Part shown: one piece after another, positions 2,514 to 64,000 of the stretch | Layout: the number at the start of each line of letters is the position of its first letter | Numbering within the stretch: position 1 is the first letter of the stretch | Virus record (IMG/VR): IMGVR_UViG_2660238585_000005 | From: an uncultured virus (IMG/VR IMGVR_UViG_2660238585_000005) | Lineage: Duplodnaviria; Heunggongvirae; Uroviricota; Caudoviricetes | Direction: 5' to 3' (one strand) | DNA: 64,000 nt | Program-made: the position numbers and the translations under genes | The notes under the pieces: generated by a model | Databases searched by the model: none | Seen by the model: only the letters and a program-made list of their open reading frames with translations | What the model was told of the DNA's origin: nothing

Positions 2514-2529
2514 ATCTATATAAAATTAA

Positions 2530-5354: not shown

Positions 5355-5387
5355 ATATCCTCCTAAATTTTATATAAAAAGTTAAAA

Positions 5388-9392: not shown

Positions 9393-9432
9393 AAGAGGCT
9401 CCCCTCCTTTCTTACTAAATCCAACTAATCAA

Positions 9433-9828: not shown

Positions 9829-9857
9829 AATACTTCTCTCCCTTTTAAAATATATTT

Positions 9858-10097
9858 TTACTTAGCTTCTAACTTGTCTTGTTCTGCATATACTAAATCT
9901 TCAAAGTCTCTCATATCTTTTCTTATAGCTTCTTTATTTTTATTGTAGGCTTCTTGATTTTGTACAGTTTTGCTTAAGTTTTCTTGAGTAGTTCCATCTG
10001 TACTTAAACTAGCACTCATATATACAACTACTTGTCCATCTATTGATGATGTTCCAGATATATTTATTGTTTTATTTGTATTTAACATTTGTATCAT
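9858..10097 (-). CDS. Phage tail-region hypothetical protein
   Basis: Tightly packed in the tail operon. Confidence 0.65.
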   Translation of the reverse strand: MIQMLNTNKTINISGTSSIDGQVVVYMSASLSTDGTTQENLSKTVQNQEAYNKNKEAIRKDMRDFEDLVYAEQDKLEAK

Positions 10098-10102
10098 CCT
10101 TT

Positions 10103-10807
10103 CTATATAAATCTTGGATTGTATTTAATTTTTATATTGCAAGTGTTCTTACTTAATGTGATCAAATTATCTCCCGGAACTAAAAAAGGAAACTCCCACA
10201 TATCAGTATCATCAAATTTATTGATACCATCTTGTGTAACAGTTCCCTCTATTCCATTTATAACTATAGTTTTATTGCCCTTTAAGTTCTTTACAATAAA
10301 AGGATCTTCGCTTAATCCAGTTATTTTTAAATCAACCATATCTATAGTAGGAGTTATTTCTAAAATTACAGGTACTTTTGTATTACCTTGACCGTTTATA
10401 TTTTTACTTGAAACTCCATTTGTAATAGTTTCAGTTACTTCATTTTCTATATTATAACCTATAAAACTTAATTGTAATCTTCCTCTAATTTGCCTCAAAC
10501 TGGGTTGATCTGAGTTTCCATTTAAAATACATTTAAATCTTAAGTTTCTATCTTTAAAATAAACTTCAAATGGTTTTACCATATTACTTAATAAGTTACT
10601 TTTGTCTAAATAATACTGTCTTTTATCTAAAGAGTTTACTAAAAGAGTAACAGTAATTAAATTTAACTCTACTTTAGAATCAAAGAAAAGAGGTAACAAT
10701 GTGTTTTTTCCTTCAAAGTCTTTTAAATTATTAATGCTAGAGTTTTGAATATTAACTTCTAAAACTCTAGCATTAAACTTTTCTATATTTATATTGTTTA
10801 TAAGCAT
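10103..10807 (-). CDS. Distal tail protein (Dit)
   Basis: Follows tape measure; C-terminal WEFPFLVPGDN. Confidence 0.85.
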   Translation of the reverse strand: MLINNINIEKFNARVLEVNIQNSSINNLKDFEGKNTLLPLFFDSKVELNLITVTLLVNSLDKRQYYLDKSNLLSNMVKPFEVYFKDRNLRFKCILNGNSDQPSLRQIRGRLQLSFIGYNIENEVTETITNGVSSKNINGQGNTKVPVILEITPTIDMVDLKITGLSEDPFIVKNLKGNKTIVINGIEGTVTQDGINKFDDTDMWEFPFLVPGDNLITLSKNTCNIKIKYNPRFI

Positions 10808-10810
10808 TTG

Positions 10811-13800
10811 TTACCTCCTTCTTCTCATTGTATTTAAAGCAAGTCTATTTGAAACTCTTGGAACTACAACTCTATCTATTTCTTCTCCTTCAATACTAAT
10901 AGGTATTATAATATCTCCACTAGAATCACCTTTATTTTTCATCATAGAGTTTATAACCCCTTGAGCAGTTTGTCTTGCAGTTTCTAAAACCATTTGCTCA
11001 CTTGATTCATGATTATATACCTTCGTTCCACTTGGTAAATCATATAACTCATATCCTCTTTCATGAAGATATGTTAAACCACCTTCAAAGTGTGATGTAC
11101 CTGTCCAGTGTTCTCCAGGCTTTTTACCATGACTTTGGAAGAATGTATTTACAAAGAAGTTTTTAACTAGACTTCCCCATCCACTATTCCATGCATCTTT
11201 TAATTTATCCCATTTACTTTTAACTTTACCAGTTGTAGTATCTACATCTTTTGTAATATCTGAGTTCATAGAAGTTATTTCCTTAACTGCTTTATCTCTT
11301 GTTTCTTTAGCTGCACTTATAGTATCATCTCTTTGTTTCTTTGCATCTTCTATACATCTTTCAGCTTGTTCTTTAGTTAATGAATGGCTTTCATCTCGTT
11401 GTCTTATTAACTCAGCTATTCTGTCATCACATTCTTTATTAGCTGCCTCAATAGCTTTATCTCTAGAGTTATTTAATTCCTTTATATGCTTAGAAGCCAT
11501 ATCGGCAGTTATATTTTTATCATTATCTTTCATTCTTTCAAGAATTACCTTAGCTTCAACTTCATTATCAGATAAAGTTTTTATAGCAGTAGTTTTCATA
11601 TCTTCTTTAATTTGCTTAATATCTTGTAACTCTTGATTACTAACTTGTCTATGCTCTTCAGCTGCTTTAGCATAAATAGCATTAATTTTATTTTGAGCTT
11701 CATCAACTTGTTGCTTTTCTTTAGTCCAATAACTTTTTGTTTTTTCTAGTGCAACTTTCTTTTCTTCATCTGTAAGGGCATTAGTTTTAGCAAAGAAATC
11801 TTTTTGACTTTTTAAATCTGCATCTCTTTTTTTGTCCATACCATCTTTAATTTTATTAGCCATATCCGTATAAACTTTTTGCATTTCTTGAGATTGTTGT
11901 TTTGATAACCCTACACTTTTAGTTAATGTATCTTTAAAATCTTGTATAGTTTGATCCTTTTGTCTTTGAGTTAATCCTTTAGTCCCATTAACCATTGCAG
12001 TATATTGTTTTATTATCTCATTTTTATTTTTACTAGTTAAAACTCCAGTATCAGAAACTAATTTTTTAAAGTCTACAGTCATTCTTTCTCTTTGATCCTT
12101 AGATAAACTACTCGATTTTTTACTCATTTCTGTAAAGTTTTTAACTACAGTATCTTTTGCTTCTTTTGAGAATTTATTTGAGTTCATTCTTAAATTCATC
12201 ATTGACTCACTAGCTTTTTTATCTAAATCTAAGTAAGCTTGTACATTATCTTTTGTTGCTTTAGATATTTTAATTACATCTTTTTCTGTAGCTTGTGCAT
12301 AGTTTCCAAACTTATCTCTTGAAACTTCAACTTTATCTGCAAATAAATCTACCGCAGGTGTTGCACTTGAATTTAAGTGTTCTGCAACTTTATATCCTGC
12401 ATATCCAACGGCAGCTACTGCAGCTACACCTAATGCAATTGGTCCTAGTGAGGCTATAACTGTTGCACCAAATCCAGCCCCAGCAACTTCTGCTCCTGCT
12501 AATCCAGCTCCCGCAGCTTCTGCAGCTGGACCAAGTCCTAATAGTATTTTAGAAAAGTCTTTAAATGTAGCAGCGGCTTTTAATGCTTTAAACTTTCCAA
12601 CAGTTCCAATTAATCCACCTATACCACTAGATACATGACCTAAACCACTTGTTAAAGGCCCTATAGCAATAGCAGCTAATCCTGCCTTAACTATAAATTC
12701 TTGAGTATGTGGACTTAAATTGCTAAAGCTAGTTGCTAATTTAGTGATATCTTTAGCAACACTTGTTATAGCTGGAGCTAATGCTTGGAAAGTTTTTATT
12801 GCTGCACCTTCTAGAGCACTTTTCATTTCTGCTAAACTACCCTTTGCATTTTCACTCATAGTTTTAGCCATTTTAGCAGTAGCACCTTCACTGTTGTCTA
12901 TAGCATTTGCTAATTTATCAAAATCTCCTTCACTAGCATTTATAATTGAAAGCCATCCAGACATTGCTTCTTTACCAAAGATAGTTGCAACTGCACTAGC
13001 TTGAGTAGCTTCATCTAAACCACCCATTTTTTCTCTAAGGTCAGACATTACTGCTCTAAAGCTTTTCATCTTACCGTCACTATTTTCTACAGATATTCCA
13101 TACTTCTCCATCATATCAGCCATACTATCCGTAGGCTTTACTAAGTTAGTTAATCCTGCTCTTAAAGCAGTACCAGCTTGGCTTGCTTTAATACCACTAT
13201 TAGCCATTAATCCTATAGCTAAAGAAGTATCTTGAACACTATATCCTAAAGCACCGGCTACAGGAGCTGCATATTTAAAAGTTTCTCCCATCATACCAAC
13301 ATTAGTATTGGCATTAGATGAAGCAGCAGCTAAAACGTCACTAAACATACCAGCATCTTTAGCTTTTAATCCAAATCCTGTTAATGCATCTGTAACAATA
13401 TCAGAAGTTGACCCTAATTCTTCTCCAGAAGCAATTGCTAAATTTAGTATAGGTTCTATACCTTCGAGCATATCACCAGTTTTCCAACCAGCCATTGCCA
13501 TATACTCCATACCTTCTCCTGCTTCTGCAGCACTAAATTTAGTTTTAGCTCCCATTTCTTGAGCCTTATTTTCTAATTGTTTAAGGTCATCACCAGTAGC
13601 ACCAGAAATAGCTGCTACTTTATCCATTTGAGCCTCATATTCCATACCTACATGAGCGGCGGCTACCCCTATTCCTGTTAAAGGTAACGAAACATGAGTA
13701 GTAAGTTTTCCACCTATCTCTTGAGCTTTACTACCTACTTTTTTAAAGTTATTTCCTAAATCTTCAAGCTTTTTAGATGCATTACCTACACCATGAGTAT

Positions 13801-14335
13801 TTTCTACTTCTCTATTGAATTTATTTACCGCAGATTGAGCTTTATTTACTTCTTCCTCTGCTTTATTCATTTGAGTTTCATAGTTTTGTAAGGTTTTAGC
13901 ATTATTTTCTACTGTTCTATCTAGCTTATCATGTTCTTTTTGTAATTCTTCTAAAGCTTTTTCAGTTTCTTTAGCTTCTTTACTTTCTTTACCATAGTTT
14001 TTTATAGCATTTTCATGTGCTTTTTCAGCTTTAGAAAGAGAACTTGCTAATTTATCTCTTTCACTTATATTTTTTTGTAGTGTTTCAGTAGCATCGTGAA
14101 CACTTTTTTTATAAGTTTCTAATTTCTTATTTTGTAAATCTAATTGTTTTTGTAATGAGCTTTGAACCCTATTTACACCTTCTGTAGATTTACCAAATGC
14201 CTCTAAACCACTTTGAGCTGCTTTTAATTCATTTTTATTATTTTTAATTTCTGAATTTATACCTTTTAATGTACTGGAATATCCAGAATCATCAAGAATC
14301 ATTTTTGCGGTTATTCGTTTTTCTATATCACCCAT
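10811..14335 (-). CDS. Tail tape measure protein (TP901 family core)
   Basis: TKFSAAEAGEGMEYMAMAGW core; long helical protein. Confidence 0.95.
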   Translation of the reverse strand: MGDIEKRITAKMILDDSGYSSTLKGINSEIKNNKNELKAAQSGLEAFGKSTEGVNRVQSSLQKQLDLQNKKLETYKKSVHDATETLQKNISERDKLASSLSKAEKAHENAIKNYGKESKEAKETEKALEELQKEHDKLDRTVENNAKTLQNYETQMNKAEEEVNKAQSAVNKFNREVENTHGVGNASKKLEDLGNNFKKVGSKAQEIGGKLTTHVSLPLTGIGVAAAHVGMEYEAQMDKVAAISGATGDDLKQLENKAQEMGAKTKFSAAEAGEGMEYMAMAGWKTGDMLEGIEPILNLAIASGEELGSTSDIVTDALTGFGLKAKDAGMFSDVLAAASSNANTNVGMMGETFKYAAPVAGALGYSVQDTSLAIGLMANSGIKASQAGTALRAGLTNLVKPTDSMADMMEKYGISVENSDGKMKSFRAVMSDLREKMGGLDEATQASAVATIFGKEAMSGWLSIINASEGDFDKLANAIDNSEGATAKMAKTMSENAKGSLAEMKSALEGAAIKTFQALAPAITSVAKDITKLATSFSNLSPHTQEFIVKAGLAAIAIGPLTSGLGHVSSGIGGLIGTVGKFKALKAAATFKDFSKILLGLGPAAEAAGAGLAGAEVAGAGFGATVIASLGPIALGVAAVAAVGYAGYKVAEHLNSSATPAVDLFADKVEVSRDKFGNYAQATEKDVIKISKATKDNVQAYLDLDKKASESMMNLRMNSNKFSKEAKDTVVKNFTEMSKKSSSLSKDQRERMTVDFKKLVSDTGVLTSKNKNEIIKQYTAMVNGTKGLTQRQKDQTIQDFKDTLTKSVGLSKQQSQEMQKVYTDMANKIKDGMDKKRDADLKSQKDFFAKTNALTDEEKKVALEKTKSYWTKEKQQVDEAQNKINAIYAKAAEEHRQVSNQELQDIKQIKEDMKTTAIKTLSDNEVEAKVILERMKDNDKNITADMASKHIKELNNSRDKAIEAANKECDDRIAELIRQRDESHSLTKEQAERCIEDAKKQRDDTISAAKETRDKAVKEITSMNSDITKDVDTTTGKVKSKWDKLKDAWNSGWGSLVKNFFVNTFFQSHGKKPGEHWTGTSHFEGGLTYLHERGYELYDLPSGTKVYNHESSEQMVLETARQTAQGVINSMMKNKGDSSGDIIIPISIEGEEIDRVVVPRVSNRLALNTMRRRR

Positions 14336-14353
14336 TTACCCTCCTTTCTCTTT

Positions 14354-14572
14354 CTATAAGAAAGGTATTTCATCTATGCTAACAACTTTTTCAACATATC
14401 CATCATCTGAAACTTGTTGAGATTGCTCTTCATATGTTTTATTGAGTTCTCCGATTAACATAACAATTTCTTTGAATGTACTATCGAAGAACTCTTGTCT
14501 TGTGAAATTTAGTTGTGTTTTTGCAATAAAAAAAAGCCTATTTATATCGAATGGCTTTTCATTTAAATCTAT
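14354..14572 (-). CDS. Tail assembly chaperone -1 frameshift extension (gpGT-like)
   Basis: A9 run just before the TAG of 14569-14928; -1 frame open (IDLNEKPFDINRLFFIAKTQL...IPFL) up to the tape measure RBS. Confidence 0.8.
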   Translation of the reverse strand: MDLNEKPFDINRLFFIAKTQLNFTRQEFFDSTFKEIVMLIGELNKTYEEQSQQVSDDGYVEKVVSIDEIPFL

Positions 14573-14928
14573 TTTTTTTTATTATTTTCTGATTTATTTT
14601 CATCAGTGGTATCAGATGTTTTAACTCCTCTATAATCAAAATATAAATCTGTTGCAAAAGCTACTATTTCATTTACAACTTGATCTGGAGTTAATTTTTC
14701 TTTTAATTCATCTATAGTTAATGGGGTTTCATTTTGTTCTTTATCAAGTCTTTTTGATATACAAGAACATACCATAACTTTTAAAGCATTGTTATATAAG
14801 TTTTTACCATACATAACCCCGTTTATGACATCTCCAAAGTTATCAAATCTTTCATCTATATCAAATATAGTCTTATTTGTCATTTCAAAAGCTAAGTTTT
14901 CATTACCTACTTTAAATTTTCTTTTCAT
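14569..14928 (-). CDS. Tail assembly chaperone (gpG-like)
   Basis: Between major tail and tape measure; ends in slippery KKK codons. Confidence 0.85.
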   Translation of the reverse strand: MKRKFKVGNENLAFEMTNKTIFDIDERFDNFGDVINGVMYGKNLYNNALKVMVCSCISKRLDKEQNETPLTIDELKEKLTPDQVVNEIVAFATDLYFDYRGVKTSDTTDENKSENNKKK

Positions 14929-14953
14929 TTAACTTCACTCCCTATTATTTATA

Positions 14954-15562
14954 TTAATGTTCAGAACTAACTTCATCTGTTTTTTCTTCAGGTATAGTAA
15001 CTTTTTCAAAGAATTTACTTAAAAACTCTTTAGTTACATTAGGAGAATCACTACATACATTGTATTGCCATAATCCATTTATTAAAGGTCTAAAGCTTGC
15101 TTCTATTTTCTTGGCTTGGAAGTTTGCTTTACCTTCTTTAGCTTTTAAATCTTCATCTGATAATCCAAATGTTCCAGCATATAATATCCCATATTTATCT
15201 ATTCCTTGAGCCTTCTCTGCTTTATATAAAATAGCAAGTGTTGGAGCTATATCATTATCGTTTTTTATTACTCCGCCTGTTTTAGCTAACTTGTGCCCCA
15301 TAACGTAACAATCATCTTCATCTTGTAAATCTGTTACATTTAAAGTTACCTTTACATCTTGTAAAGTTTGTTCCTCTAAAACTTTTCTTCCTTCATGATA
15401 GTATGGATCACTATTTTGTTTTGGTTTTATTCCTATTTGTTTAACCCCTTCTAAGTATCTAGGAGTATCAAAAGTTATGTTCCCATCAGTTTCAGTTTTT
15501 AAATGAGCTACATATAACTTACTTACATTTACAACTGGTAATATTTTTTGTGGTGCTGACAT
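14954..15562 (-). CDS. Major tail protein (phi13-like)
   Basis: Size, position and NVSKLYVA motif. Confidence 0.85.
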   Translation of the reverse strand: MSAPQKILPVVNVSKLYVAHLKTETDGNITFDTPRYLEGVKQIGIKPKQNSDPYYHEGRKVLEEQTLQDVKVTLNVTDLQDEDDCYVMGHKLAKTGGVIKNDNDIAPTLAILYKAEKAQGIDKYGILYAGTFGLSDEDLKAKEGKANFQAKKIEASFRPLINGLWQYNVCSDSPNVTKEFLSKFFEKVTIPEEKTDEVSSEH

Positions 15563-15605
15563 TCTGCATCATTCCTTTCTTTTATAAATAAAAAACTAGC
15601 TTAGA

Positions 15606-15989
15606 TTAGCTAGTTGGTAAATCAATATTAAACCTCAAAGGTTTATGTTTTAATCCTGTTTTTTCTTCAAATAAATCTGGACTCCCTGCATTATATTCAA
15701 ATCCAGCTTTAATAAATTTATTAACTATAATTGTTTCTAGGTTTGTATAGTCTCCTAAACTAAAAATATCAATTTGGACTAAGTGATTTAAATAATCTAT
15801 ATTACCCTCACTATATTCACTTCCTCTAGATCTAATAACTTGATACTCTATATATGGAGGTTTAGGATTATTAGCATGAATAAAATATACTTTTTTATCA
15901 CTTGTTAAATCTAATATATCTTTATCATTTAAAACTTCTTTTAATTTCTTTTTTATAATCGAGGTATCTATTTTTATATTACGCTCCAA
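15606..15989 (-). CDS. Tail completion/terminator protein
   Basis: PYIEY...VQIDIFS...HKPLRF. Confidence 0.75.
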   Translation of the reverse strand: MERNIKIDTSIIKKKLKEVLNDKDILDLTSDKKVYFIHANNPKPPYIEYQVIRSRGSEYSEGNIDYLNHLVQIDIFSLGDYTNLETIIVNKFIKAGFEYNAGSPDLFEEKTGLKHKPLRFNIDLPTS

Positions 15990-15993
15990 AATA

Positions 15994-16368
15994 TCACCCC
16001 ATCTTTCTAAATATCGTTTGAGCTACTTTTGAAATAGCTTCCTCAGTATTTTCTTCAACACTTCTTTCAAAGTATCCTACATGAGTCTTTTGTTCACTTG
16101 TACCATACTCTTGAAATATGTCATAGAAGGCTTTACTTTTTGCAGTTCCTTCTGTTGCTAAAGCATTTTCGTTAACAGATACTTTAATCTCAGCAAGCTC
16201 TCCTGTTGGTCCTTTTGGAGTATCATTTTCTAATCCTTTTCCAATTACTTTTATACCTGACCTTATAGCTTGCCTTTTTATAACTGTATCTAAAGCCATA
16301 TTTTTTACATATTCCTCAAACTCTTCATATCCTTCAAGTTCTATAGTACTTGACATATACACCTCCAA
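15994..16368 (-). CDS. HK97 gp10-family tail component
   Basis: TPKGPTGEL, FQEYGTS. Confidence 0.8.
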   Translation of the reverse strand: MEVYMSSTIELEGYEEFEEYVKNMALDTVIKRQAIRSGIKVIGKGLENDTPKGPTGELAEIKVSVNENALATEGTAKSKAFYDIFQEYGTSEQKTHVGYFERSVEENTEEAISKVAQTIFRKMG

Positions 16369-16408
16369 ATAAAAAAAGAAAGCTATATAGCTTCCTTTTT
16401 ATCTTTTA

Positions 16409-24800: not shown

Positions 24801-25484
24801 CTATTTTTTTATTGGTTCATTGAAAGAAGGCGGATTAATATCTATCTTTGTATTATGATTGTTAGGTCCCGGACTAGATAAGTCAAAGTATAGTTTAGAG
24901 TCTTCAGTAACTCCAAAGTCTCTATTTGAACCTGTATCTTTAATCTTATTTAATGCATCTCTAAATAAAGCATTATGAGCTTCTTCTCTGTTAAGTAAGA
25001 AGTCTATTGTTTCTCTTACATATTTATCGTCAATTTGTCTATATAAATATTCATATACAACTTTTGCTCTTTGCTCTGATGCTATATTTGATAATAGATC
25101 TGCAACTAAGTCTCCTGTTACAGTAACATAATCAGCAGTCCAAGGTGCTCCTGAAGAGTTTATTAAAAATGGTGATAATCCACTTAATACATGAGTTTCT
25201 ATTTCTCCAGAATCAACTGCTTTATAATCAACATCATGTCCATTTAATAAATTTATTGTTTGAGCAACCATTTCCATATGGCTAAGTTCTTCCGCTGCTA
25301 TATCTAGAAATAAATCTTTTATCTCTTTATCTTTTATTCTAAAGCTTTGAGATAAATATTGCATTGCTGCTTTTAACTCTCCATTTCCTCCTCCTAATTG
25401 CTCTTGCATTAAAACTGCATATTGAGGATTTGGTCTTTCTACTTTTACTTCTCTTAACAATTTTTTATCATGTTTAAACATCAA
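24801..25484 (-). CDS. Manganese catalase family protein
   Basis: EQLGGGNGELKAAMQY, EELSHMEM, REEAH metal ligands. Confidence 0.92.
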   Translation of the reverse strand: MMFKHDKKLLREVKVERPNPQYAVLMQEQLGGGNGELKAAMQYLSQSFRIKDKEIKDLFLDIAAEELSHMEMVAQTINLLNGHDVDYKAVDSGEIETHVLSGLSPFLINSSGAPWTADYVTVTGDLVADLLSNIASEQRAKVVYEYLYRQIDDKYVRETIDFLLNREEAHNALFRDALNKIKDTGSNRDFGVTEDSKLYFDLSSPGPNNHNTKIDINPPSFNEPIKK

Positions 25485-27209: not shown

Positions 27210-27467
27210 TTAATCAATAATATCTTTCATTTCCTCTAGACATTTTTCACATATAAAAATGTTTTTGATGTTTTTTAAATTCTCTTTTGATCCACATAAA
27301 ATACACGAATTATTATGTTTTTTAAGCTTAATAGTTCCATTTTCACATAATATTTCAACTGGATCATTTTCATTTATATTTAACATTCTTCTAAATTCCT
27401 TTGGTATTACGATTCTTCCTAGTGAATCGATATTTCTTACAATGCCTTTATTATTTTTGCCATTCAT
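27210..27467 (-). CDS. abrB: AbrB-family transition-state regulator
   Basis: GIVRNIDSLGRIVIPKEFRRML plus clostridial C-terminal CxxC...CxxC. Confidence 0.9.
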   Translation of the reverse strand: MNGKNNKGIVRNIDSLGRIVIPKEFRRMLNINENDPVEILCENGTIKLKKHNNSCILCGSKENLKNIKNIFICEKCLEEMKDIID

Positions 27468-30589: not shown

Positions 30590-30856
30590 CTAAGCTCCTT
30601 GTTTATCGTTATATTCTTTAATCGCTATTTCTTTAGCTTCTTCATAACTCAAACCAGTTTCTTCTAACTCCTTTGTTCTAATCCATATTGGGTAAGCTAT
30701 ACTCAATGCTTCATCCCCATATTTTTCTCTTTGTCTATCAAGTATCCATTTAGCTTTTCTTCTTTCTATTTCCTCAATCCAATATGGATCTTCTGGGTAA
30801 ACTACCTCAACTTTTATTTCTCTGCTTTTTCTTGGTGCCATTGCAACCACCCCCAC
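30590..30856 (-). CDS. Small early protein, candidate recombination directionality factor (likely start ATG 30841)
   Basis: Beta strand-Pro-helix pattern, position after cro/antirepressor, sporulation-type promoter; function is inference. Confidence 0.55.
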   Translation of the reverse strand: MGVVAMAPRKSREIKVEVVYPEDPYWIEEIERRKAKWILDRQREKYGDEALSIAYPIWIRTKELEETGLSYEEAKEIAIKEYNDKQGA

Positions 30857-30859: not shown

Positions 30860-30889
30860 ATTTTATGTTTATTAAAAATTGTCCTATGC
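30860..30889 (-). promoter_or_regulatory. sigmaE-like promoter with embedded SpoIIID-consensus site
   Basis: GCATA-N17-CATAAAAT; TAGGACAATT fits WWRRACARnY; same motif at 62886-62915. Confidence 0.65.
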
Positions 30890-34899: not shown

Positions 34900-36492
34900 A
34901 TGGTTGCTGCTATATACTCAAGAAAATCAAAGTTCACAGGAAAGGGTGAATCTATAGAAAACCAAATACAGCTTTGCATGGACTATGCTAAGAACATAGG
35001 AATTAATGAATTTTTAGTATATGAAGATGAAGGTTTCTCTGGTAAATCTATGGATAGACCAAAGTTTAAAGAAATGCTTAAAGATGCTAAAGATAAAAAA
35101 TTTGATTATTTAATATGTTATAGATTAGATAGAATATCCCGTAATGTTTCTGACTTCTCTACTCTTATAGAAGATCTAAATAAGCTTAATATATCTTTCG
35201 TATCAATTAAAGAACAATTTGATACTAGTACTCCTATGGGACGTGCTATGATGTATATATCATCTGTATTTGCTCAGTTAGAACGAGAAACTATAGCTGA
35301 GCGTGTTAGAGATAACATGTATGAGTTAGCTAGAACAGGAAGATGGCTAGGAGGTATGCCTCCATATGGTTTTATTAGTACTCAAATTAACTACTATGAT
35401 GAAAATATGAACCAAAGAAAAATGTATAAACTTAAAGTTGATGAAGATACAATAGAAATTGTTAAATTGATATTTGATAAATATTTAGAGCTTAGATCAC
35501 TTTCAAAACTTTATAAATATATGTATGAGAATGGAATTAAAGGAACTCGTGGAGGTAACCTTGATCCTAGTGCCTTATCTTTAATCCTAAAAAATCCAGC
35601 ATATGTTAAAGCTGATAAAAGTGTAGTTGATTATCTAAGAAAGTCTAATATAGATGTTATGGGAGATATAGACAATATACATGGTATCCTAACTTATGCT
35701 AAAAATACAGATAGTCCTATAGCTGCTGTTGCTAAACATAAAGGTGTTATAGATTCTGATAAATGGATTGAAGCACAAAGGCTACTTAATGCAAATAAGG
35801 CTAAAGCTCCTAGAGCTGGAACTGGAAGTAAGGCATTATTATCAGGTCTTTTAAAATGTTCTAAGTGTAGCTCTAATATGAGAATTACTTATAAAAACTC
35901 TAAAAGCGGCACTATCTATTATTACATATGTGGAACAAAGAAATCTTTAGGAGTATCAGCTTGTGATTGTAAAAATATCAGATCTGATAAGGCTGAGTCT
36001 AAAGTTATAGATGAATTAAAAAATAAAAGTATTAAATCTATAATGTCAAGTTATAAAGATAGCAAGTTAGAAAACTCTAAGAATATTAAAAATATAAAAA
36101 CTGAGATAAACTCAATAAATAATCAAATTAAAGAAAAAGAAACATACATTGATAATTTAGTTATGCAATTAGCCAAGGTTACCGAAAGCTCTGCATCTAC
36201 TTTTATAATCAATAAGTTAGAATCTTTAAATAATGACTTATCTAATTTAAAATCACAATTAGAATCTTTAAATACTATGTCTATGGAAAATAAGCAAGTT
36301 GATATTAATATAAATATGCTTATAGATAATTTAAATAAATTTAATAAAGAAATTGATACCTCTGATATTAATAAGAAGAGACTGTTACTATCTACAGTAG
36401 TAGATTACATGACATGGGACTCTGATACAGACACAATAAAAGTAAACCTAATAGGTATCAATCCAAGCAATACTATAGCTTCAGATAAATAG
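34900..36492 (+). CDS. Large serine recombinase (integrase of prophage 1)
   Basis: YSRKS catalytic Ser, RLDRISRN, PPYGF, Zn ribbon CSKC..YYIC..C, coiled coil. Confidence 0.96.
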   Translation: MVAAIYSRKSKFTGKGESIENQIQLCMDYAKNIGINEFLVYEDEGFSGKSMDRPKFKEMLKDAKDKKFDYLICYRLDRISRNVSDFSTLIEDLNKLNISFVSIKEQFDTSTPMGRAMMYISSVFAQLERETIAERVRDNMYELARTGRWLGGMPPYGFISTQINYYDENMNQRKMYKLKVDEDTIEIVKLIFDKYLELRSLSKLYKYMYENGIKGTRGGNLDPSALSLILKNPAYVKADKSVVDYLRKSNIDVMGDIDNIHGILTYAKNTDSPIAAVAKHKGVIDSDKWIEAQRLLNANKAKAPRAGTGSKALLSGLLKCSKCSSNMRITYKNSKSGTIYYYICGTKKSLGVSACDCKNIRSDKAESKVIDELKNKSIKSIMSSYKDSKLENSKNIKNIKTEINSINNQIKEKETYIDNLVMQLAKVTESSASTFIINKLESLNNDLSNLKSQLESLNTMSMENKQVDININMLIDNLNKFNKEIDTSDINKKRLLLSTVVDYMTWDSDTDTIKVNLIGINPSNTIASDK

Positions 36493-36535
36493 GAACTTTA
36501 ATACATTTATCTGAAGCTATTTCTATGTCAGATAA
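36475..36535. other. Prophage 1 right junction (att) region
   Basis: Perfect 16-bp inverted repeat 36475-36490/36505-36520, third TCAGATAA at 36528; host ATPase frame resumes at ~36507. Confidence 0.75.
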
Positions 36536-36698
36536 GGTCGCAGTTTTATCCAAACGTCCTGCATCTATAAAAAGTATCTATACTATAGATTTAAAAATAT
36601 CAGAAACTAGAACTCCTATAATATCAAGAAGTGCTGAAAATTTTAAAGACTATTTTAATATCTTGTGGAAGGAGATTGATTCTAGTGAAACAAAATAA
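36507..36698 (+). pseudogene. 3' fragment of NitT/TauT-family ABC ATPase (YtlC-like), split by prophage 1
   Basis: Hand translation LSEAISMSDKVAVLSKRPASIKSIYTIDL...YFNILWKEIDSSETK*, the segment that follows the THD H-loop. Confidence 0.88.
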
Positions 36699-37488
36699 TG
36701 TATCACAAGGTCATAAACAATATTTAAAATCGCTAAAAAAAGAAAAGAATCTAATCTTTTTTTATCAAATATTTATATTGGTTGGATTTATAGCTCTTTG
36801 GGAATTACTTGCTAGACTTAATATAATAGATGTATTTCTATTTAGCAAACCTAGTGATATTTACAATCTTTTTATAAAATATATTCAAAATGGAGAATTA
36901 TTTAAGCATATATTAATATCTAGCTATGAGACAATAGTTGGATTAGCAGTTGGTACAATTCTTGGAATATTAGTAGCTATAATGCTTTGGTGGTCAGAAA
37001 GATTATCTAAAATACTTGATCCATTTTTGGTTGTACTAAATGCACTTCCTAAAACAGCATTAGCACCAATTTTAATAGTTTGGGCTGGAGCTGGTGTAAA
37101 TGGAATAATAGTTATAGCTATTACTATATCTGTTGTTGTTACTATATTATCCGCCTATAATTATTTTATAAGTGTTGATGAGGAAAAAGTCAAAATGCTT
37201 AAAAGTTTTGGAGCATCAAAACTTCAAATTCTTACAAAATTAATATTTCCTTCTAACATAGGAAATTTAATAAATTTAACTAAAATTAATATAGGTATGG
37301 CTTGGGTTGGCGTAATAGTAGGTGAATTCTTAGTATCTAGATATGGACTTGGGTACTTAATAGTTTATGGTGGCCAAGTTTTCAAATTAGATTTAGTAAT
37401 GATGGGAGTAATAGTATTAGCCCTTTGTGCTTTAATTATGTATCAAGTTTTAAATATAGCAGAAAAAATTTATAAAAGTAAAAGATAA
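36685..37488 (+). CDS. NitT/TauT-family ABC permease (YtlD-like); GTG start after GGAG
   Basis: LNALPKTALAPILIVW, AWVGVIVGEFL, GLGYLI. Confidence 0.92.
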   Translation: MKQNNVSQGHKQYLKSLKKEKNLIFFYQIFILVGFIALWELLARLNIIDVFLFSKPSDIYNLFIKYIQNGELFKHILISSYETIVGLAVGTILGILVAIMLWWSERLSKILDPFLVVLNALPKTALAPILIVWAGAGVNGIIVIAITISVVVTILSAYNYFISVDEEKVKMLKSFGASKLQILTKLIFPSNIGNLINLTKINIGMAWVGVIVGEFLVSRYGLGYLIVYGGQVFKLDLVMMGVIVLALCALIMYQVLNIAEKIYKSKR

Positions 37489-37505
37489 AATTTAATATAA
37501 AAACA

Positions 37506-37557
37506 AAATAACTGAGTTCAAGTTTATTATAAACAGGCTTGAGCTCAGTTATTTTTT
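37506..37557. terminator. Bidirectional terminator between permease and nitroreductase
   Basis: AAATAACTGAGTTCAAG...CTTGAGCTCAGTTATTT. Confidence 0.8.
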
Positions 37558-38368
37558 ATATATTACAATATCCTATTATTTCATAATCTGTTGGTACGTC
37601 ATAATTTCTATTACCGTTTTCTAAAGTCCATTTTAAATCAAACATAGTTGTATCAATTATTAATGAAAAGTATAGCATAACTATCCCTACATCAACTTTA
37701 CCTTCATACTCACTTGCAAATTCATCTTTTCTTACTGCAAGAATCACTTTGCCTCCATCAATTATAAATCTCCAAGGTTGTCTATTTAATGTAGATGGTG
37801 CCATTCTAGCAAAACTAAATGCATCTAATAATCCTCTTTCTTCTAATAATTCTATGGTTGCATTTTCTCCCCATTTATCTATATAAACTATCTTTTCTAC
37901 ACCTAATCTAGATGAATCACCAGTAGCTGATTTAGTTTTTACAGTATCTCCATAACCTAGTGCAATAATTGCTGTAACTTCCTTATCTGATAAAATTTCA
38001 AGCTTTTCTTTTATAAGCGAACTCTCTTTAAAGGTAACCCAACATGAGTCGATTCCTAAGTCCATGGCCTTTAGAGTTAAGTTTTCTCCTATATATCCTG
38101 AATTTTCTATGTATCCTTTATCTGTATCAGATAAAATGATTACATAGTTTGGTGCTTCTATCATATGTCCATTATATCCTGCTATTTTATCAAGTTTTGG
38201 ATACAATTTATCTTTATTAAAAACTTTAATTTCAGTCCTTATTTCTGGTACAAGTTTTTTAGACATATTTATATATTCTTCTATTATTCTGAAATCTGAT
38301 TTTTTTATTTCTTGATTTTTAAATTTCCTTACTGACCTTTTATTGGATATAAGATATTTGTAATTCAT
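37556..38368 (-). CDS. Nitroreductase-family protein (host)
   Basis: KRSVRKF, GIDSCWV, APSTLNRQPWRF. Confidence 0.9.
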   Translation of the reverse strand: MNYKYLISNKRSVRKFKNQEIKKSDFRIIEEYINMSKKLVPEIRTEIKVFNKDKLYPKLDKIAGYNGHMIEAPNYVIILSDTDKGYIENSGYIGENLTLKAMDLGIDSCWVTFKESSLIKEKLEILSDKEVTAIIALGYGDTVKTKSATGDSSRLGVEKIVYIDKWGENATIELLEERGLLDAFSFARMAPSTLNRQPWRFIIDGGKVILAVRKDEFASEYEGKVDVGIVMLYFSLIIDTTMFDLKWTLENGNRNYDVPTDYEIIGYCNI

Positions 38369-38489
38369 AATTTCCCCTCCCTAAAGTTATATTAAATTTT
38401 ATTTTATATTTTTTATACCCAAAATCAACACAAAGCAAACATTTTCCTGATAACTATAGTATTTTTACAAATATCTAAAATGGTTTTAT

Positions 38490-38518
38490 CACCAATCAAT
38501 TTATTTTTTAATAATATA
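38490..38518 (+). promoter_or_regulatory. sigmaK-like mother-cell promoter of the substrate-binding gene
   Basis: CACC-N16-AATAATATA versus CACM-N16-CATAnnnTA. Confidence 0.5.
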
Positions 38519-38539
38519 CATTATCTTTAATTTTAAGGG

Positions 38540-39097
38540 GTGATTTTTTTGCTAAAAAAATTAATAATATTAATAACTTTAATTACTAGCCTATCTTTGC
38601 TTCTCATTGGATGTACTCCTAAATCTCAAAGTATTAAATCTAAAAATTTAAATAAGCTAACTGTTGCAGAGGTAACCCATTCAGTATTTTATGCTCCACA
38701 ATATGCAGCTATAACTCAAGGTTTTTTTGAGGAAGAGGGCATTGAGTTAGACCTTATAAATACTCAGGGAGCAGATAAAACAATGGCTGCACTTCTTTCT
38801 GGAGAAGCAGATATAGGCCTTATGGGACCAGAAGCATCTATTTATGTATATAATAAAGGGAATTCAAATTATGCAGTAAATTTTGCGCAATTAACTCAAA
38901 AAGATGGAAGCTTTTTAGTTGCTCGTGAAAATACTGATAGTTTTTCTTTTGAGGATTTAAAAGGTAAAGAGGTTTTAGGTGGTAGAAAAGGTGGGGTTCC
39001 TGAAATGACATTAGAGTATGTTATGAAAAAAAATGGTCTAACTATAGGAACTGGTACTCAAAACGGTAAAGTAAATGTTAGAACCGATATTCAATAA
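38540..39097 (+). pseudogene. 5' part of NMT1/SsuA-type ABC substrate-binding lipoprotein (YtlA-like), truncated by prophage 2
   Basis: Lipobox LIGC, EVTHSVFYAPQY, GGRKGGVPEM; stops at 185 aa, about half the family length, where phage DNA begins. Confidence 0.88.
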
Positions 39098-39117
39098 TCA
39101 GTTTTATTATAACAGTT
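39073..39117. other. Prophage 2 attL with serine-integrase geometry
   Basis: AACCGAT/ATCAGTT around central CA (39092-39093); outer AAATGTTA/TAACAGTT lie 11 and 16 bp from the centre. Confidence 0.7.
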
Positions 39118-39178
39118 AATTTTTAGAATAGTATTTTAGAAATATTAAGATAAAATTTTCATTAATACTATAAAAAAA

Positions 39179-59989: not shown

Positions 59990-60758
59990 CTCCTTTATAC
60001 AATTTGGCTTCTATATTTTTTTCTATATTTGATCTGTATAGTTTTAATTTATCCACCGTAGTAATTCCAGCTTCTAACCACTTATTTATAATACCTTCTA
60101 TGTAGTATATAGATTTTATATTTGATTTTATAGATATTCTCATTGCTTCTATAAATAACTCATTTTGTATTTTTTTTGATAATTTAACTATCCTATCTTG
60201 TTCAATTGAATTTAATATATAATTACTAGCTATTTCTCTTTTATAAAAGTTTATTATATCTTCTATAGTAGTCTCTTTTGTTTTATCCAAATTATTTAAA
60301 CTTATATTTTTAATATTGTTATTATTAAAGCTTTTATTATTAGGGGGGTTAATTTGATTACTATCAAGTTGACTACTATCAAATTGACCATTGTCAATTT
60401 GACTAGTATCATATTCTTCTCTTGCAACTTTTATTTCTCTAGTATCCATTATTAATTCATATAAGTTGCTGTCATTTCTATTACCTTTTCGTCTCTTATA
60501 AACACGTATATATCCATGTTCTTTTAATTGTTTTATATTTTTATTAAATCTTCTCTCCGTTGTTGCTAGTTCAGCAAGCATTAATTCTTTTCCCGGAAAA
60601 CAACTACCATTACTTCCTGCAAAACTAGCTAAATATGCATATATAGCTTTTGCTTCTAAGCTTAACAATTTATCTCTAGTTATCTTTTTAGGAATTAAAC
60701 CATATCCTTCATTTAAAATACTGGTACTTTGAAAATATGGTTTATCTTTCACTTCCAC
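59865..60758 (-). CDS. Replication initiator (HTH + DnaD-like domain) with iterons
   Basis: AKAIYAYL..CFPG HTH; YIEGIINKW DnaD motif. Confidence 0.88.
   Translation of the reverse strand: MEVKDKPYFQSTSILNEGYGLIPKKITRDKLLSLEAKAIYAYLASFAGSNGSCFPGKELMLAELATTERRFNKNIKQLKEHGYIRVYKRRKGNRNDSNLYELIMDTREIKVAREEYDTSQIDNGQFDSSQLDSNQINPPNNKSFNNNNIKNISLNNLDKTKETTIEDIINFYKREIASNYILNSIEQDRIVKLSKKIQNELFIEAMRISIKSNIKSIYYIEGIINKWLEAGITTVDKLKLYRSNIEKNIEAKLYKGDDLYVRTRKDKSTKKSTNDSRESEESRKIRLLEKCKELSKK
60349..60402. repeat. Four palindromic iterons TCAANTTGA at 15-bp period (probable origin)
   Basis: Copies at 60349 (degenerate), 60364, 60379 and 60394. Confidence 0.8.
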
Positions 60759-60796
60759 TATATTTCACCTTCTTTTGTATTAAATAGCCATTATCA

Positions 60797-61621
60797 TTAT
60801 TGAGTAATATTTATTTCTTCACTTTCATCTTTTAATTCAAATCCAACCTCAATAGGTTCTATTTCATCTTCGATTAAACTCATATCTTCATCTATTTTAG
60901 ATTTAACAGTTTCATCTGAGTTAACTGCCTTTTGAATTTCTATACTTAGTGGAGCGTATTTTAAAAGTTGTTTTATAACAGTTTTCTTTGCCATTGCATT
61001 AAAATCAGTTTGCCAAGGTCCATTTTTAAAAGTCTTACTTTTACTTCTAGCATGATTTAACACTTCTTCTTTGGTCATGAATATAAAACTATATCCACCT
61101 GAAGTTAAATGGTAAACTGAGTAATAACCTATAACTTCTCCTCTTTCCCCAGTTATTACAGGCTCATGTATAATATCTTGATTTAGTCCATACTTTACTT
61201 CAAACTTATCATTTTCTCTAACCTCATGTGCATATAAACTCTTTATTTGTCCACTTCTTAATGCCAACTCCAGTAATCCCTTATATCCAATTTGAAATTG
61301 AACTTTATTACCATATGGAATTAGATAGGCTTGTCCTAGTGGTGTATTTGGTTCTAAACCTAGTTGAGCTGAATCCATCATAGCTGCTAAAAAACTCATA
61401 GGATCACAACTTAAAAATTTAGAATTACTTCCAAATGCTGTTAAAACTAGTCTTTGAAATCTCTCGCTTGATATATGTTCTGGTAAGGCTTTCTTTATTT
61501 GTCCTGACATTTGTCTCATTAATTGCTCCATAGCTTTATTTGGGCTAGATTTTTTGACATTTATTGTTTCTGATGCTTTATTTGCTAGTTTATTTTTTAA
61601 ATCTGTCATTTTATATACCAT
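60797..61621 (-). CDS. recT: RecT-family recombinase
   Basis: AQLGLEPNTPLGQAYLIPY, IGYKGLLELALRSG, AMAKKTVIK. Confidence 0.95.
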   Translation of the reverse strand: MVYKMTDLKNKLANKASETINVKKSSPNKAMEQLMRQMSGQIKKALPEHISSERFQRLVLTAFGSNSKFLSCDPMSFLAAMMDSAQLGLEPNTPLGQAYLIPYGNKVQFQIGYKGLLELALRSGQIKSLYAHEVRENDKFEVKYGLNQDIIHEPVITGERGEVIGYYSVYHLTSGGYSFIFMTKEEVLNHARSKSKTFKNGPWQTDFNAMAKKTVIKQLLKYAPLSIEIQKAVNSDETVKSKIDEDMSLIEDEIEPIEVGFELKDESEEINITQ

Positions 61622-61627
61622 CCTTCT

Positions 61628-62614
61628 TTATTTTTCTTTTCCAATCTTAAAAATTCTTGAAGTGCTAATTTTCATAAATTGTTCTGCTATATCTGGCATC
61701 TCAGCTTTTAATCTTTTACTATCTAAAGTTTTTCTAGAAGAATTTTTCCATGTTATTTTTCTAGTTCCTATTCTAGCTACTTCAAATTCTTTCATATGAG
61801 CTTGTATTTCTTGTTCTATTAATTTTTTCTCCTTCTCTAATTGTTTTATATCTGATAATATGTCATCATATCTTAAAAGCTTTTCTTTCCCATTTTCTAA
61901 AAAATGCAATTCTATTTCTTCATTATTAGAAAATTTATATTTCTCTTTTAAATACTCACTGTATGCATCTGATCCATCTGGTAAAGGTACAATATCTTTT
62001 AATATGTTTTCTTCCCAAAACCTTTTTTCTATTTGCATAAGATAGTTTATCGACTCTTCATCCCTAACTAATTTATGAAATAAGAATTCACTGTTCCCAA
62101 TTAACACAGCTATATAGCAATGTGTAGCACCTGTTATAGCCATATAATGTAAGCATTGAATTTCATAATGTATTGGAATCCCTTCTTGCCATTCTTTTAG
62201 TGAATATGAACCCGTTGTTTTACACTCTAAAAAAGCTTTTTCTCCTAAAATAGCTCTATCTATATTTCCTAGTGCAAAAGGATATTTATCATTTTTAAGT
62301 ATGCCATTAACATTTCTTACCTTTAATCCAGTTTTTTCTGTAAATAATTCAGCAACCAAGCCCTCTAATCTATTTCCTAATTCAAGTCTAAAAGATTTAA
62401 CTTCTTTTGGACTATCTGCTTTTTTTTCCATATAAAGTTGTATTGAACTCTTCCATGGATTAACTCCTATAACTGCAGATGCATCACTACCTCCTATTCC
62501 CGATTGTCTGTACTTTAGCCATTTATCCTTTTTTATATCTTTTGTATCAACTACTATGTATGAATCTAAATATTTTCTTTGCCTTTCACATTTATTTCTA
62601 TTCATAAAATCCAC
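61628..62614 (-). CDS. YqaJ-like viral exonuclease
   Basis: GIGGSDAS, LECKT, QCLHYMAITG. Confidence 0.95.
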   Translation of the reverse strand: MDFMNRNKCERQRKYLDSYIVVDTKDIKKDKWLKYRQSGIGGSDASAVIGVNPWKSSIQLYMEKKADSPKEVKSFRLELGNRLEGLVAELFTEKTGLKVRNVNGILKNDKYPFALGNIDRAILGEKAFLECKTTGSYSLKEWQEGIPIHYEIQCLHYMAITGATHCYIAVLIGNSEFLFHKLVRDEESINYLMQIEKRFWEENILKDIVPLPDGSDAYSEYLKEKYKFSNNEEIELHFLENGKEKLLRYDDILSDIKQLEKEKKLIEQEIQAHMKEFEVARIGTRKITWKNSSRKTLDSKRLKAEMPDIAEQFMKISTSRIFKIGKEK

Positions 62615-62684
62615 CCTTCTATTGGACTATTATATTTAATAATTTATTTAAAATTAAGCTTGTCCTAATTTGTATGTATAGCTA

Positions 62685-62864
62685 CTATTTTTTAGTAGCT
62701 AACTTACCTTCTTGGTATAACCTTTTTGCTATTCTATAATTAATCTTTGCTATTCTGTCAAGGATTGCCTGAATTTCTTCATCTGTTTGCTTTCTTCCAA
62801 GCCTCACTTCTGGAGAAATTATTTCTATTATCGCATTTTCAGTTTCTACCTTATAAATATCCAT
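62685..62864 (-). CDS. 59-aa protein MDIYKVETENAIIEIISPEVRLGRKQTDEEIQAILDRIAKINYRIAKRLYQEGKLATKK, candidate RDF
   Basis: Translated by hand; AAGGGGGG RBS; follows sigmaE/SpoIIID-like promoter. Confidence 0.65.
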   Translation of the reverse strand: MDIYKVETENAIIEIISPEVRLGRKQTDEEIQAILDRIAKINYRIAKRLYQEGKLATKK

Positions 62865-62885
62865 AATGTAATCCCCCCTTTATAA

Positions 62886-62915
62886 TTTATATGAATTATA
62901 AAAATTGTCCTATTC
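62886..62915 (-). promoter_or_regulatory. sigmaE-like promoter with embedded SpoIIID-consensus site
   Basis: GAATA-N17-CATATAAA with TAGGACAATT; matches 30860-30889. Confidence 0.62.
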
Positions 62916-62954
62916 AACACTATTTCTATGTAAATATGAAAAATATTGATATGT

Positions 62955-63155
62955 CTATATAGTTTTTTTAAATAGCATTTTTAAATCACACTCTGGAAAA
63001 AATTGTTCTTGTATTTTAAGAGCTTCATCATAAGTAAATGAATACTTACCTGATAGTTTTAAATTTAAAGTATTGTAAGTTTTGCCTATGTATTTGGCTA
63101 TAGATGCTTTTTTTATTTTTTTCCTAGCTATCTCAGCCTCTAAATTAAGATACAT
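62955..63155 (-). CDS. Cro-like regulator
   Basis: NLEAEIARKKI..LNLKLSGK..FTYDEA. Confidence 0.88.
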   Translation of the reverse strand: MYLNLEAEIARKKIKKASIAKYIGKTYNTLNLKLSGKYSFTYDEALKIQEQFFPECDLKMLFKKTI

Positions 63156-63173
63156 TTGATGCTTCCTCCTTTG

Positions 63174-63298
63174 AACGTTATTTCGTTTGTAATTTTATGT
63201 TATACTAAATTTCGTTTAAAATCAACATTTTTTTTATTTTTTTATAAAATTTAAATATTTTTAAATGAAATTTCGTTTATTATGATTGAATTTACGTT
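63174..63298. promoter_or_regulatory. Four operator-like sites, consensus AACGAAATTTCGTT
   Basis: Variants at 63174, 63203, 63264 and 63285 between cro and repressor. Confidence 0.72.
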
Positions 63299-63339
63299 TA
63301 TAAAATGCTAATATATACAATAGAAAGGAGGTTTTTATA

Positions 63340-63822
63340 TTGAATAAAACTAATAAATTAAAACAACTAATTTTAAATAAATATGGTAGTATAAGAGAAT
63401 TTTCTAGAATTGTACAAATACCTAGCACCACATTAACCAGTGCACTAGATAAAGGTATTGGCGGAATGGCTGTAGACCGAGTTATTAAAATTTGCGATAT
63501 ATTAAATATAGATATAAAAACATTTGATCCTCTAGATCAAGATAATGAAATTTTTTCTAAAAAAGATGATTTAGATAAAAATAAAGTTAATAGTTTTAAA
63601 TCTGTTAAGGAACAAAATTTATTAAGCAATTTCTATAAACTTAACGATTTAGGAAAAGATGAAGCAATTAAAAGGGTTTATGAATTAACTCAACTAAAAA
63701 ACTATACTGAAAAAAACACTAGCTTAAATATAAAAACTATAGCTGCCCACAATGACCATTTAACCGAGTATGGTGAAATGGATAGAATATTAGAAGATAT
63801 AAAAGATATGAATAATTGGTAA
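63340..63822 (+). CDS. ImmR/CI-like repressor
   Basis: KYGSIREFS..IPSTTL HTH; C-terminal TIAAH motif; divergent from cro. Confidence 0.85.
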   Translation: MNKTNKLKQLILNKYGSIREFSRIVQIPSTTLTSALDKGIGGMAVDRVIKICDILNIDIKTFDPLDQDNEIFSKKDDLDKNKVNSFKSVKEQNLLSNFYKLNDLGKDEAIKRVYELTQLKNYTEKNTSLNIKTIAAHNDHLTEYGEMDRILEDIKDMNNW

Positions 63823-63838
63823 AGTTTAGGTGATTTAT

Positions 63839-64000
63839 ATGAATATATATGAGGAATTACAACAAGAAGCACATGAAAATAATATAATAGTAAAAGAAGT
63901 TTCACTTAAGTCAAGCTCTGATGGTCTATATTATGATGGAAAAATTGCTATAAATAAAACTAGATTGACTACTAATAAAGAAAAGGCATGCGTTTTAGCA
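63839..64000 (+). CDS. ImmA/IrrE-family peptidase, 5' part (cut by window edge)
   Basis: MNIYEEL...DGLYYDGKIAINK...EKACVLA, the segment preceding the xELGH motif. Confidence 0.78.
   Translation, partial: MNIYEELQQEAHENNIIVKEVSLKSSSDGLYYDGKIAINKTRLTTNKEKACVLA

Follow-up and report, generated by a model that had tools for sequence, protein, structure and literature searches.

The 59-amino acid open reading frame (ORF) behind the cro-like gene of a Paraclostridium prophage is very probably a recombination directionality factor (RDF) that acts in the mother cell, excises this prophage (prophage 2), and rebuilds the host gene ytlA. The ORF lies near the right-hand end of a 64,000-nt stretch of DNA, referred to here as the window, which also carries a second prophage (prophage 1). 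A preliminary description of this DNA had proposed a developmental excision switch shared by the two prophages. The switch itself is well supported by a twin of its promoter at CD1884 of Clostridioides difficile, by homology of the ORF product to CD1234, and by the link with integrases and their targets; of this switch, the two prophages share the promoter alone.

Gene context and the split ytlA gene

Prophage 2 spans ~39092 to beyond the window and looks complete, and its left end cuts a host ABC substrate-binding gene after codon 185 (Table 1). The names ytlA, ytlC, and ytlD were assigned from domain matches, position, and C. difficile annotation; the three are reported as core sigma-K sporulation genes (PMC3416734). 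A candidate promoter ahead of ytlA is laid out like the sigma-K promoter mapped for CD1891 (PMC3789822). The host nitroreductase encoded between the two prophages falls in a cluster whose members are named Paraclostridium sordellii.

The right end of prophage 2 lies outside the window, and the right junction was taken from relatives. The 3′ part of ytlA follows the same integrase family in seven loci, three from Paraclostridium (L185, L208, and L217) and four from C. difficile (L196, L199, L221, and L225). Around CA 39092-39093, 25 of 30 bases of the left phage arm agree with the reverse-complemented right-junction arm of L185. Both halves of ytlA join within the same Gln codon, so excision would restore the reading frame. 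The serine integrase, which also lies past the window, was read from L001 (1-1539, minus strand), which is 99.5% identical over window positions 60001-64000; it has 512 residues with Resolvase, Recombinase, and Zn-ribbon domains. Prophage 2 has a split sporulation gene and a large serine recombinase with frame-restoring att sites, as gene-intervening elements do, and its putative excision factor stands, by sequence and through the twin promoter of CD1884 in C. difficile, under a mother-cell promoter. The prophage-2 cassette very probably joins the skin/SPbeta kind of sporulation gene-intervening elements.

Prophage 1 ends in a serine integrase gene followed by the 3′ remnant of an ABC ATPase gene, which we take to be ytlC-like from its position and from the family sequence; no 5′ part of ytlC was found among the ORFs of window positions 1-5500. 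Two different serine-integrase prophages cut the ytlC-like and ytlA-like genes 2.6 kb apart (36500-39097), and a third phage (L058) cuts a ytlD-like permease gene. The cargo of prophage 1 includes a manganese-catalase (CotJC-like) gene and an AbrB/MazE-fold regulator (24801-25484 and 27210-27467). To the left of the prophage-1 lysin lies a 477-residue protein with a VanZ-family domain (1-1434), which scores below the resistance-gene model cut-offs.

The two prophages and their flanking genes had been described as unrelated. This holds for cro, cI, and terminase, which give no meaningful match, and for the integrases, which are 24% identical; it does not hold for the amidase, a holin-like gene, a NUMOD protein, and a 77-residue ORF, which are 82%, 72%, 63%, and 66% identical, respectively. 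Judged from these comparisons, prophages 1 and 2 are mosaic relatives.

Table 1. Features of the window discussed in the text.
Feature	Position	Strand	Remarks
Same promoter, prophage 1	30860-30889	-	precedes an 83-88-aa ORF (30590-30856) of another family
Prophage-1 serine integrase and 3′ remnant of ytlC-like ABC ATPase gene	34900-36698	+	
ytlD-like permease	36631-37488	+	after the ytlC-like remnant
Candidate sigma-K-type ytlA promoter	38491-38517	+	AC, 17 nt, AATAATAT; by eye
Host ytlA-like ABC substrate-binding gene, 5′ part	38540-39097	+	cut by prophage 2
Left attachment site of prophage 2	39064-39123	+	probable crossover dinucleotide CA 39092-39093
YqaJ-like recombinase gene	61628-62614	-	then recT, DnaD-like, and DnaC-like genes
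Downstream TAGGACAAGC box	62658-62667	-	perfect SpoIIID consensus; intergenic, 53 nt before the yqaJ-like ATG
RNA hairpin over the ORF stop codon	62679-62701	-	no U tract; z -3.3, 0/200 shuffles
59-aa ORF, probable RDF, CD1234/CD1884 family	62685-62864	-	
Ribosome-binding site	62872-62880	-	from sequence
Sigma-E-type promoter	62886-62915	-	-35 GAATA (62915-62911), 17-nt spacer, -10 CATATAAA (62893-62886)
Candidate SpoIIID-type box TAGGACAATT	62903-62912	-	overlaps the -35; 8/10 to TAGGACAAGC; consensus that of B. subtilis
Cro-like gene	62955-63155	-	upstream; puts the ORF in the early lytic operon
CI-like repressor and start of ImmA-like gene	63340-64000	+	

A sigma-E-type promoter ahead of the ORF

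The minus strand from 62915 to 62886 reads GAATA GGACAATTTTTATAATT CATATAAA, which comprises ATA, a 17-nt spacer, and CATA. Its counterpart in prophage 1 (30889-30860, minus strand) reads GCATA GGACAATTTTTAATAAA CATAAAAT. The two copies agree in 23 of 30 bases, and the 17-nt spacer and identical core with which the pair was first described are confirmed, the core being 15 nt long. Each prophage has one copy of the pattern ATAGGACAA-N11-CATA, which makes two in the window against a mean of 0.00 and a maximum of 0 in 100 dinucleotide shuffles. The bare 9-mer, allowing one mismatch, is not enriched in the window (31 seen versus 28.7 expected), so the signal sits in the spaced pair.

The motif has the ATA -35, the 16-18 nt spacer, and the CATA-type -10 of the C. 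difficile sigma-E consensus and is a predicted sigma-E promoter, a type active in the mother cell alone. Among the 47 mapped sigma-E promoters of C. difficile inspected by eye in PMC3789822, those of CD1884 and of CD1234 stand alone in that ATA is directly followed by (A/G)GACAA. CD1884 of strain 630 has a mapped sigma-E start and a level of 0.11 in the sigE mutant according to that paper, and its promoter is identical to the 62886-62915 motif at 25 of 30 bases (by eye, Table S7 of PMC3789822). By analogy with this promoter, the transcript of the 59-residue ORF would start at about 62880.

Two further lines were set aside. A sigma-K reading of ACAA was dropped because its distance to CATA, 13 nt, is too short for a sigma-K -35 element. 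Contigs from four RNA runs include one of 318 nt over 62602-62919, which is not counted as evidence of a transcript because the neighboring genes are covered too and the source may be DNA.

SpoIIID-type boxes and the downstream hairpin

In B. subtilis, the consensus for SpoIIID is TAGGACAAGC (PMC11180830); it is matched at 8 of 10 positions by the candidate box over the -35 element and at 10 of 10 by the box behind the ORF, which does lie just ahead of the recombination and replication genes, as first described. The hairpin between the ORF and this box lacks the U tract of an intrinsic terminator and was not called by the terminator scan, and Rfam gave no matches at 62000-63500. Similar hairpins are present in relatives, in which the U-less hairpin usually lies 4-15 nt ahead of GGACAAG. 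This heptamer occurs within 70 nt of the stop codon in 30 of 57 distinct modules compared with 0.7% of random windows from the same loci. Upstream of yqaJ, it is found in 16 of 19 serine-integrase loci and in none of 18 tyrosine-integrase loci. In prophage 1, the box is 85 nt off and inside the next ORF.

The hairpin and box perhaps serve to end (or stabilize) a short mother-cell transcript, the likeliest role for them but one held at a little under even confidence. That SpoIIID is the roadblock that ends this transcript before the recombination and replication genes is a more doubtful proposition. The read-through block envisaged in the preliminary description gains from the conservation of the box and its linkage to the module; it loses from the retention of hairpin and box behind CD1234 and the CD1884-type gene, in phage-free elements where no replication or recombination genes follow, from the retention of the box in one promoter-less copy, and from the 27 of 57 modules that have no GGACAAG within 70 nt of the stop codon. 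A sigma-A promoter behind the box (TATAAT is present) was also considered and dropped; the scan called none, and the stretch is not kept in relatives.

The RDF assignment could be right and ACAA could belong to an extended sigma-E or sigma-E/K element or to another factor, with the downstream copy acting as an RNA 3′-end signal or persisting as a relic; this is rather unlikely, yet it is the likeliest of the competing explanations. It accommodates the sense-strand orientation of every box and the behavior of the relaxed pattern in five host genomes, which is not enriched (28 matches versus 37 for the reversed control) and has no recognizable sporulation gene within 120 nt downstream. It also accommodates a second perfect TAGGACAAGC within recT (61329-61338), which derives from Leu-Gly-Gln-Ala codons, recurs in tyrosine-integrase phages, and was set aside as a functional site, being a by-product of those codons. 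CD1884 is missing from the spoIIID microarray list, but so is CD1234, which proved SpoIIID-dependent by later qRT-PCR and is 40-fold lower in the spoIIID mutant (PMC5025042). The SpoIIID site of CD1234 is called further upstream in that paper than the ATA-adjacent GGACAA-type box. SpoIIID is favored by the identity of the downstream copy with the published consensus (PMC11180830), by the spacing of ACAA and CATA that speaks against sigma-K, and by the presence of the upstream motif before host sigK, a known target of sigma-E and SpoIIID, at five Oscillospiraceae/Ruminococcus loci.

The ORF product and its relation to CD1234 and CD1884

The 59-residue product is predicted to form a β-hairpin, a short helix, and a long helix at residues 28-51 (pLDDT 88). 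Pfam and NCBIfam return zero matches for it, the best PHROGs match has an E value of 0.098, and none of 24 relatives rises above a curated cut-off in domain scans. A PDB sequence search returned just designed coiled coils and unrelated enzymes. Three fold searches with the predicted model gave no clear match (best Foldseek E 4.0, best VIA Z 3.4), and the ESM Atlas gave unnamed clusters at 0.83-0.84. RDFs have no common fold. A named family considered for such small proteins was dropped, as the scans gave it no support. A search with the family profile yields 30 matches, of which 26 have 49-93 residues and four are long repetitive proteins.

The ORFs behind the two copies of the promoter had been likened to each other for a strand-Pro-helix layout. 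The likeness is visible by eye, but no homology is detectable: BLASTP finds none, HHalign returns just 0.2% and 0.6%, and with the family profile the prophage-1 ORF attains 1.2 bits, as do 176 of 982 shuffles. Homology between the two was rejected on these results, and the prophage-1 ORF is assigned to another family.

CD1234 is the proven RDF of skinCd and is governed by sigma-E and by SpoIIID (PMC5025042); that paper reports no database homologue. An integrase-profile search of 112 family genomes brought up skin elements inserted in sigK, and the comparison used an orthologue from related clades (loci L287/L288). The 72-residue skin ORF of these loci matches the CD1234 primers IMV720 and IMV678 (17/18 bases; first codons exact), the primers being those tabulated in PMC5025042, and is, by skin position, length, and primer match, the predicted CD1234 orthologue. 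A profile of 39 family sequences, built without this orthologue, aligns to it in HHalign at 75% (E 2.5e-5) and scores 14.6 and 12.0 bits on it; of the shuffles, 0 of 993 and 1 of 992, respectively, do as well. The alignment of the 59-residue ORF with CD1234 covers 37 columns at 22% identity, and the pI values are 9.05 and 4.95. Predicted models of both proteins end in strands plus a long helix. At the DNA level, the alignment with the CD1234 locus shows the same cassette from the promoter through the downstream box, and the integrase of L001 shares 49% identity with the skin integrase from a related clade. Together, these comparisons point to the 59-residue ORF as a remote homologue of CD1234.

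In the C. difficile loci L196, L221, and L225, the CD1884 promoter string precedes a 93-residue homologue of the ORF. This homologue is ~6.4 kb from the 5′ part of ytlA, and CD1884 is 6.5 kb from CD1891; because of the shared promoter string and the matching distance, the two are equated, on the basis of C. difficile loci other than strain 630. The annotation of CD1891 calls it part 1 of a fragmented substrate-binding protein, and the gene has a sigma-K promoter (0.08 in sigK); ytlC CD1927 likewise bears a fragment annotation, and CD1884 is listed merely as a conserved hypothetical protein (PMC3789822). On this equation, CD1884 is identified as a homologue of the 59-residue ORF and is the probable RDF of the ytlA element in C. 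difficile.

Co-occurrence with serine integrases and sporulation genes

Among the viral loci that carry the ORF, the promoter is kept in 19 of 19 while the neighboring genes vary, and the integrase is present in at least 16 (L006 ends before it). A protein-first search finds the exact promoter at 26 of 30 homologues and not at the other four; 24 of the 30 lie within 10 kb of an integrase match on the same contig. The same integrase family is found in 21 of 22 genomes with the ORF compared with 9 of 90 without it. In a control set chosen by yqaJ (59 loci: 19 with a serine integrase, 18 with a tyrosine integrase, and 22 without an integrase that were left out, three of them with the motif), the motif occurs in 18 of 19 serine-integrase and 0 of 18 tyrosine-integrase loci, counts that are inflated by kinship among loci that are not independent. 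Correction for kin by eye leaves ~6 of 7 serine groups with the motif versus 0 of 11 tyrosine groups.

The ORF is also retained in minimal, decayed elements. The 7-9 kb ytlA element of C. difficile (L196, L199, and L221) consists of integrase, promoter, ORF, and unrelated cargo, with no other phage gene. A reading in which the promoter does work in the mother cell while its product is some other sporulation-induced phage factor, such as a regulator that silences the prophage there, with excision driven otherwise, is improbable. A homologue sits in the tyrosine-integrase prophage L304, where it lacks the promoter and has the downstream box, and 4 of 11 predicted RDFs failed on testing in PMC12286644. 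A factor of another kind would nonetheless have to be homologous to the proven RDF CD1234 and sit in the same cassette, persist in minimal elements that have neither repressor nor lytic genes, and travel with one integrase family through changing neighborhoods in all 19 viral loci.

Several related loci show how varied the carriers are. The cargo of the C. difficile ytlA element (~7000-16400) comprises AraC, ECF sigma, and ABC genes. In Metaclostridioides mangenotii (L223, 1-16600), ytlA is cut by two elements, one of which carries a suf operon. Genomes G039 and G041 have elements in ytlA, cotJC-like, and cotE-like genes; G039 has six and G041 five integrases of the family. The Terrisporobacter phage TVCOM_ph1 carries promoter, ORF, hairpin, and box (L226:9585-9767, plus strand), and since it was recorded from culture supernatant, the full cassette occurs in a released phage.

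A pattern scan of viral sequences gave 106 matches, with a ribosome-binding-site-led ORF behind 60 of 68 that have the 17-nt spacer and behind 2 of the 38 whose spacer has another length. Among 46 such viral loci with flanks, a serine integrase is present in 36; the remaining 10 stop within 4.1 kb upstream. The corresponding genome scan gave 43 matches, namely 24 small ORFs, five host sigK promoters (one of the five checked with NCBIfam), 10 longer ORFs (chiefly from Bacillaceae), and four without an ORF. The longer ORFs, mostly of 160-315 residues, come from Bacillaceae and Gracilibacter (L183, L187, L188, L189, and L192, and also L203, L204, L206, L214, and L215); one of three tested has a weak ParB N-terminal match, and some are near recombinases.

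A serine recombinase is in the locus at 22 of the 24 small-ORF matches, and the targets of 19 of these 22 were resolved: ytlA in nine, feoB-like genes in three, sigK, cotJC-like, and yaaH-like genes in two each, and dpaA in one. Resolved targets across all sets are mother-cell genes, comprising ytlA, ytlD, sigK, cotJC, dpaA, cotE-like, yaaH-like, and feoB genes. The gene yaaH is a mother-cell gene. Mapped sigma-K promoters are reported for CD1891, feoA, dpaA, sigK, and cotE (PMC3789822). The correlation that the preliminary description proposed to look for, between the motif and both serine integrases and sporulation-gene targets, is present. Since the module tracks both, the contrary picture that it had allowed for, a motif equally common in phages of non-sporulation loci and inactive in sporulation, was not what emerged.

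The motif nevertheless marks many sporulation-linked elements and not all, because of exceptions. L304 has a homologue of the ORF without the promoter. Short relatives (43-44 residues) occur without the motif in phiCT453A and in PhiS63, whose integration site is sigK. In L294 and L301, two elements adjoin, and seemingly cut, a Lon-like protease gene for which we know of no mother-cell role. The relatives in the two phages, an unannotated 43-residue ORF of PhiS63 (L227:3873-4004, plus strand) and the 44-residue gene 10 of phiCT453A (L228:4584-4718, plus strand), each beat all shuffles on the family profile and are candidate RDFs.

A chance or merely inherited likeness of two related prophages, with no developmental function, is scarcely credible: the window has 27.5% GC, the prophages share several genes, and 44 of the 106 viral matches have no ribosome-binding-site-led ORF behind them, but the shuffles, the preference for the 17-nt spacer, the recurrence of the motif before unrelated small ORFs in several Bacillota families, and the mapped, sigE-dependent start in C. 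difficile (PMC3789822) contradict it.

Proposed mechanism and significance

If the 59-residue ORF encodes the RDF of the large serine integrase of prophage 2, the motif would be its second, developmental promoter. Upon lytic induction, the ORF would be read from the cro promoter within the early operon, as the gene order suggests. During sporulation, sigma-E RNA polymerase would transcribe it solely in the mother cell, probably assisted by SpoIIID bound over the -35 element. The RDF would then bind the integrase, and the prophage would be excised by attL × attR recombination. In this way, ytlA would be rejoined in frame in time for sigma-K expression, while the forespore would retain the prophage.

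A wider and distinctly speculative extension is that promoter, hairpin, and boxes form a portable, SpoIIID-gated cassette for excision without lysis that has been taken up by unrelated RDF families across Bacillota. SpoIIID would turn the RDF on from upstream and, bound a few bases behind the U-less hairpin, would stop polymerase before the recombination and replication genes. Termination would take place in the mother cell alone; in vegetative cells, which have no SpoIIID, lytic transcription from the cro promoter would pass through. If this is true, C. difficile would need several excisions (sigK, ytlA, and probably ytlC) to complete a spore.

The RDF assignment of the 59-residue ORF has consequences beyond prophage 2. 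CD1234, which was described as homologue-free, gains a family. For CD1884, an orphan among the sigma-E genes of C. difficile 630, a probable function emerges, which would mean that this much-studied pathogen has a second programmed rearrangement. With the 24-nt signature, candidate RDFs can be located despite the difficulty of finding such proteins by homology, and elements that interrupt sporulation genes are flagged. An idea of how a complete prophage might be excised in the mother cell without replication comes from the conserved hairpin and box. A search of the literature outside subscription papers found no paper on ytlA-splitting elements, CD1884 function, or the downstream element. Within the literature searched, the link of the ORF family to CD1234, the interpretation of CD1884, the signature of the promoter, and the element formed by hairpin and box are new; family members may already be predicted in the RDF table of PMC12286644.

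Comparison with known systems

Two gene-intervening elements split sporulation genes as prophage 2 does: (i) yin, in yabG of C. botulinum, which has a serine recombinase and a predicted 53-residue RDF with a putative sigma-K promoter (PMC10747680), and (ii) gin, in gerE of B. cereus, which has a serine recombinase and the 42-residue GirX (PMC5595907). PhiS63 in sigK of C. perfringens likewise splits a sporulation gene by means of a serine recombinase (PMC3442830). Its integrase is 44% identical, the motif is absent, and no RDF is named in the available part of that report.

SPbeta, which resides in spsM of B. subtilis (SprA and SprB; PMC4191935, PMC5499854), is an active prophage with a 58-residue RDF that has both lytic and mother-cell promoters, and its excision is confined to the mother cell. 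Its serine integrase shows 30% identity. PDB and fold searches gave no clear sequence or fold match between the 59-residue ORF and solved RDFs, SprB among them. The SprB promoter is described as sigma-E/K, with no SpoIIID box reported in the available parts of these papers.

The C. difficile ytlA element differs from prophage 2 in the length of its ORF, 93 residues for the CD1884 homologue compared with 59, and in being a 7-9 kb phage-free element. The skinCd element (CD1231 recombinase and CD1234 RDF; PMC5025042) has in common with prophage 2 the ATA-(A/G)GACAA-CATA promoter with its 17-nt spacer and the remotely homologous ORF. In the skinCd clade genomes L287/L288, a hairpin and GGACAAG lie behind the RDF gene as they do in prophage 2. 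Both elements split a mother-cell gene, but the target of skinCd is sigK and that of prophage 2 is ytlA. Unlike skinCd, as described in PMC5025042, prophage 2 looks complete and carries its probable RDF gene in the early lytic operon, directly before the recombination and replication genes.
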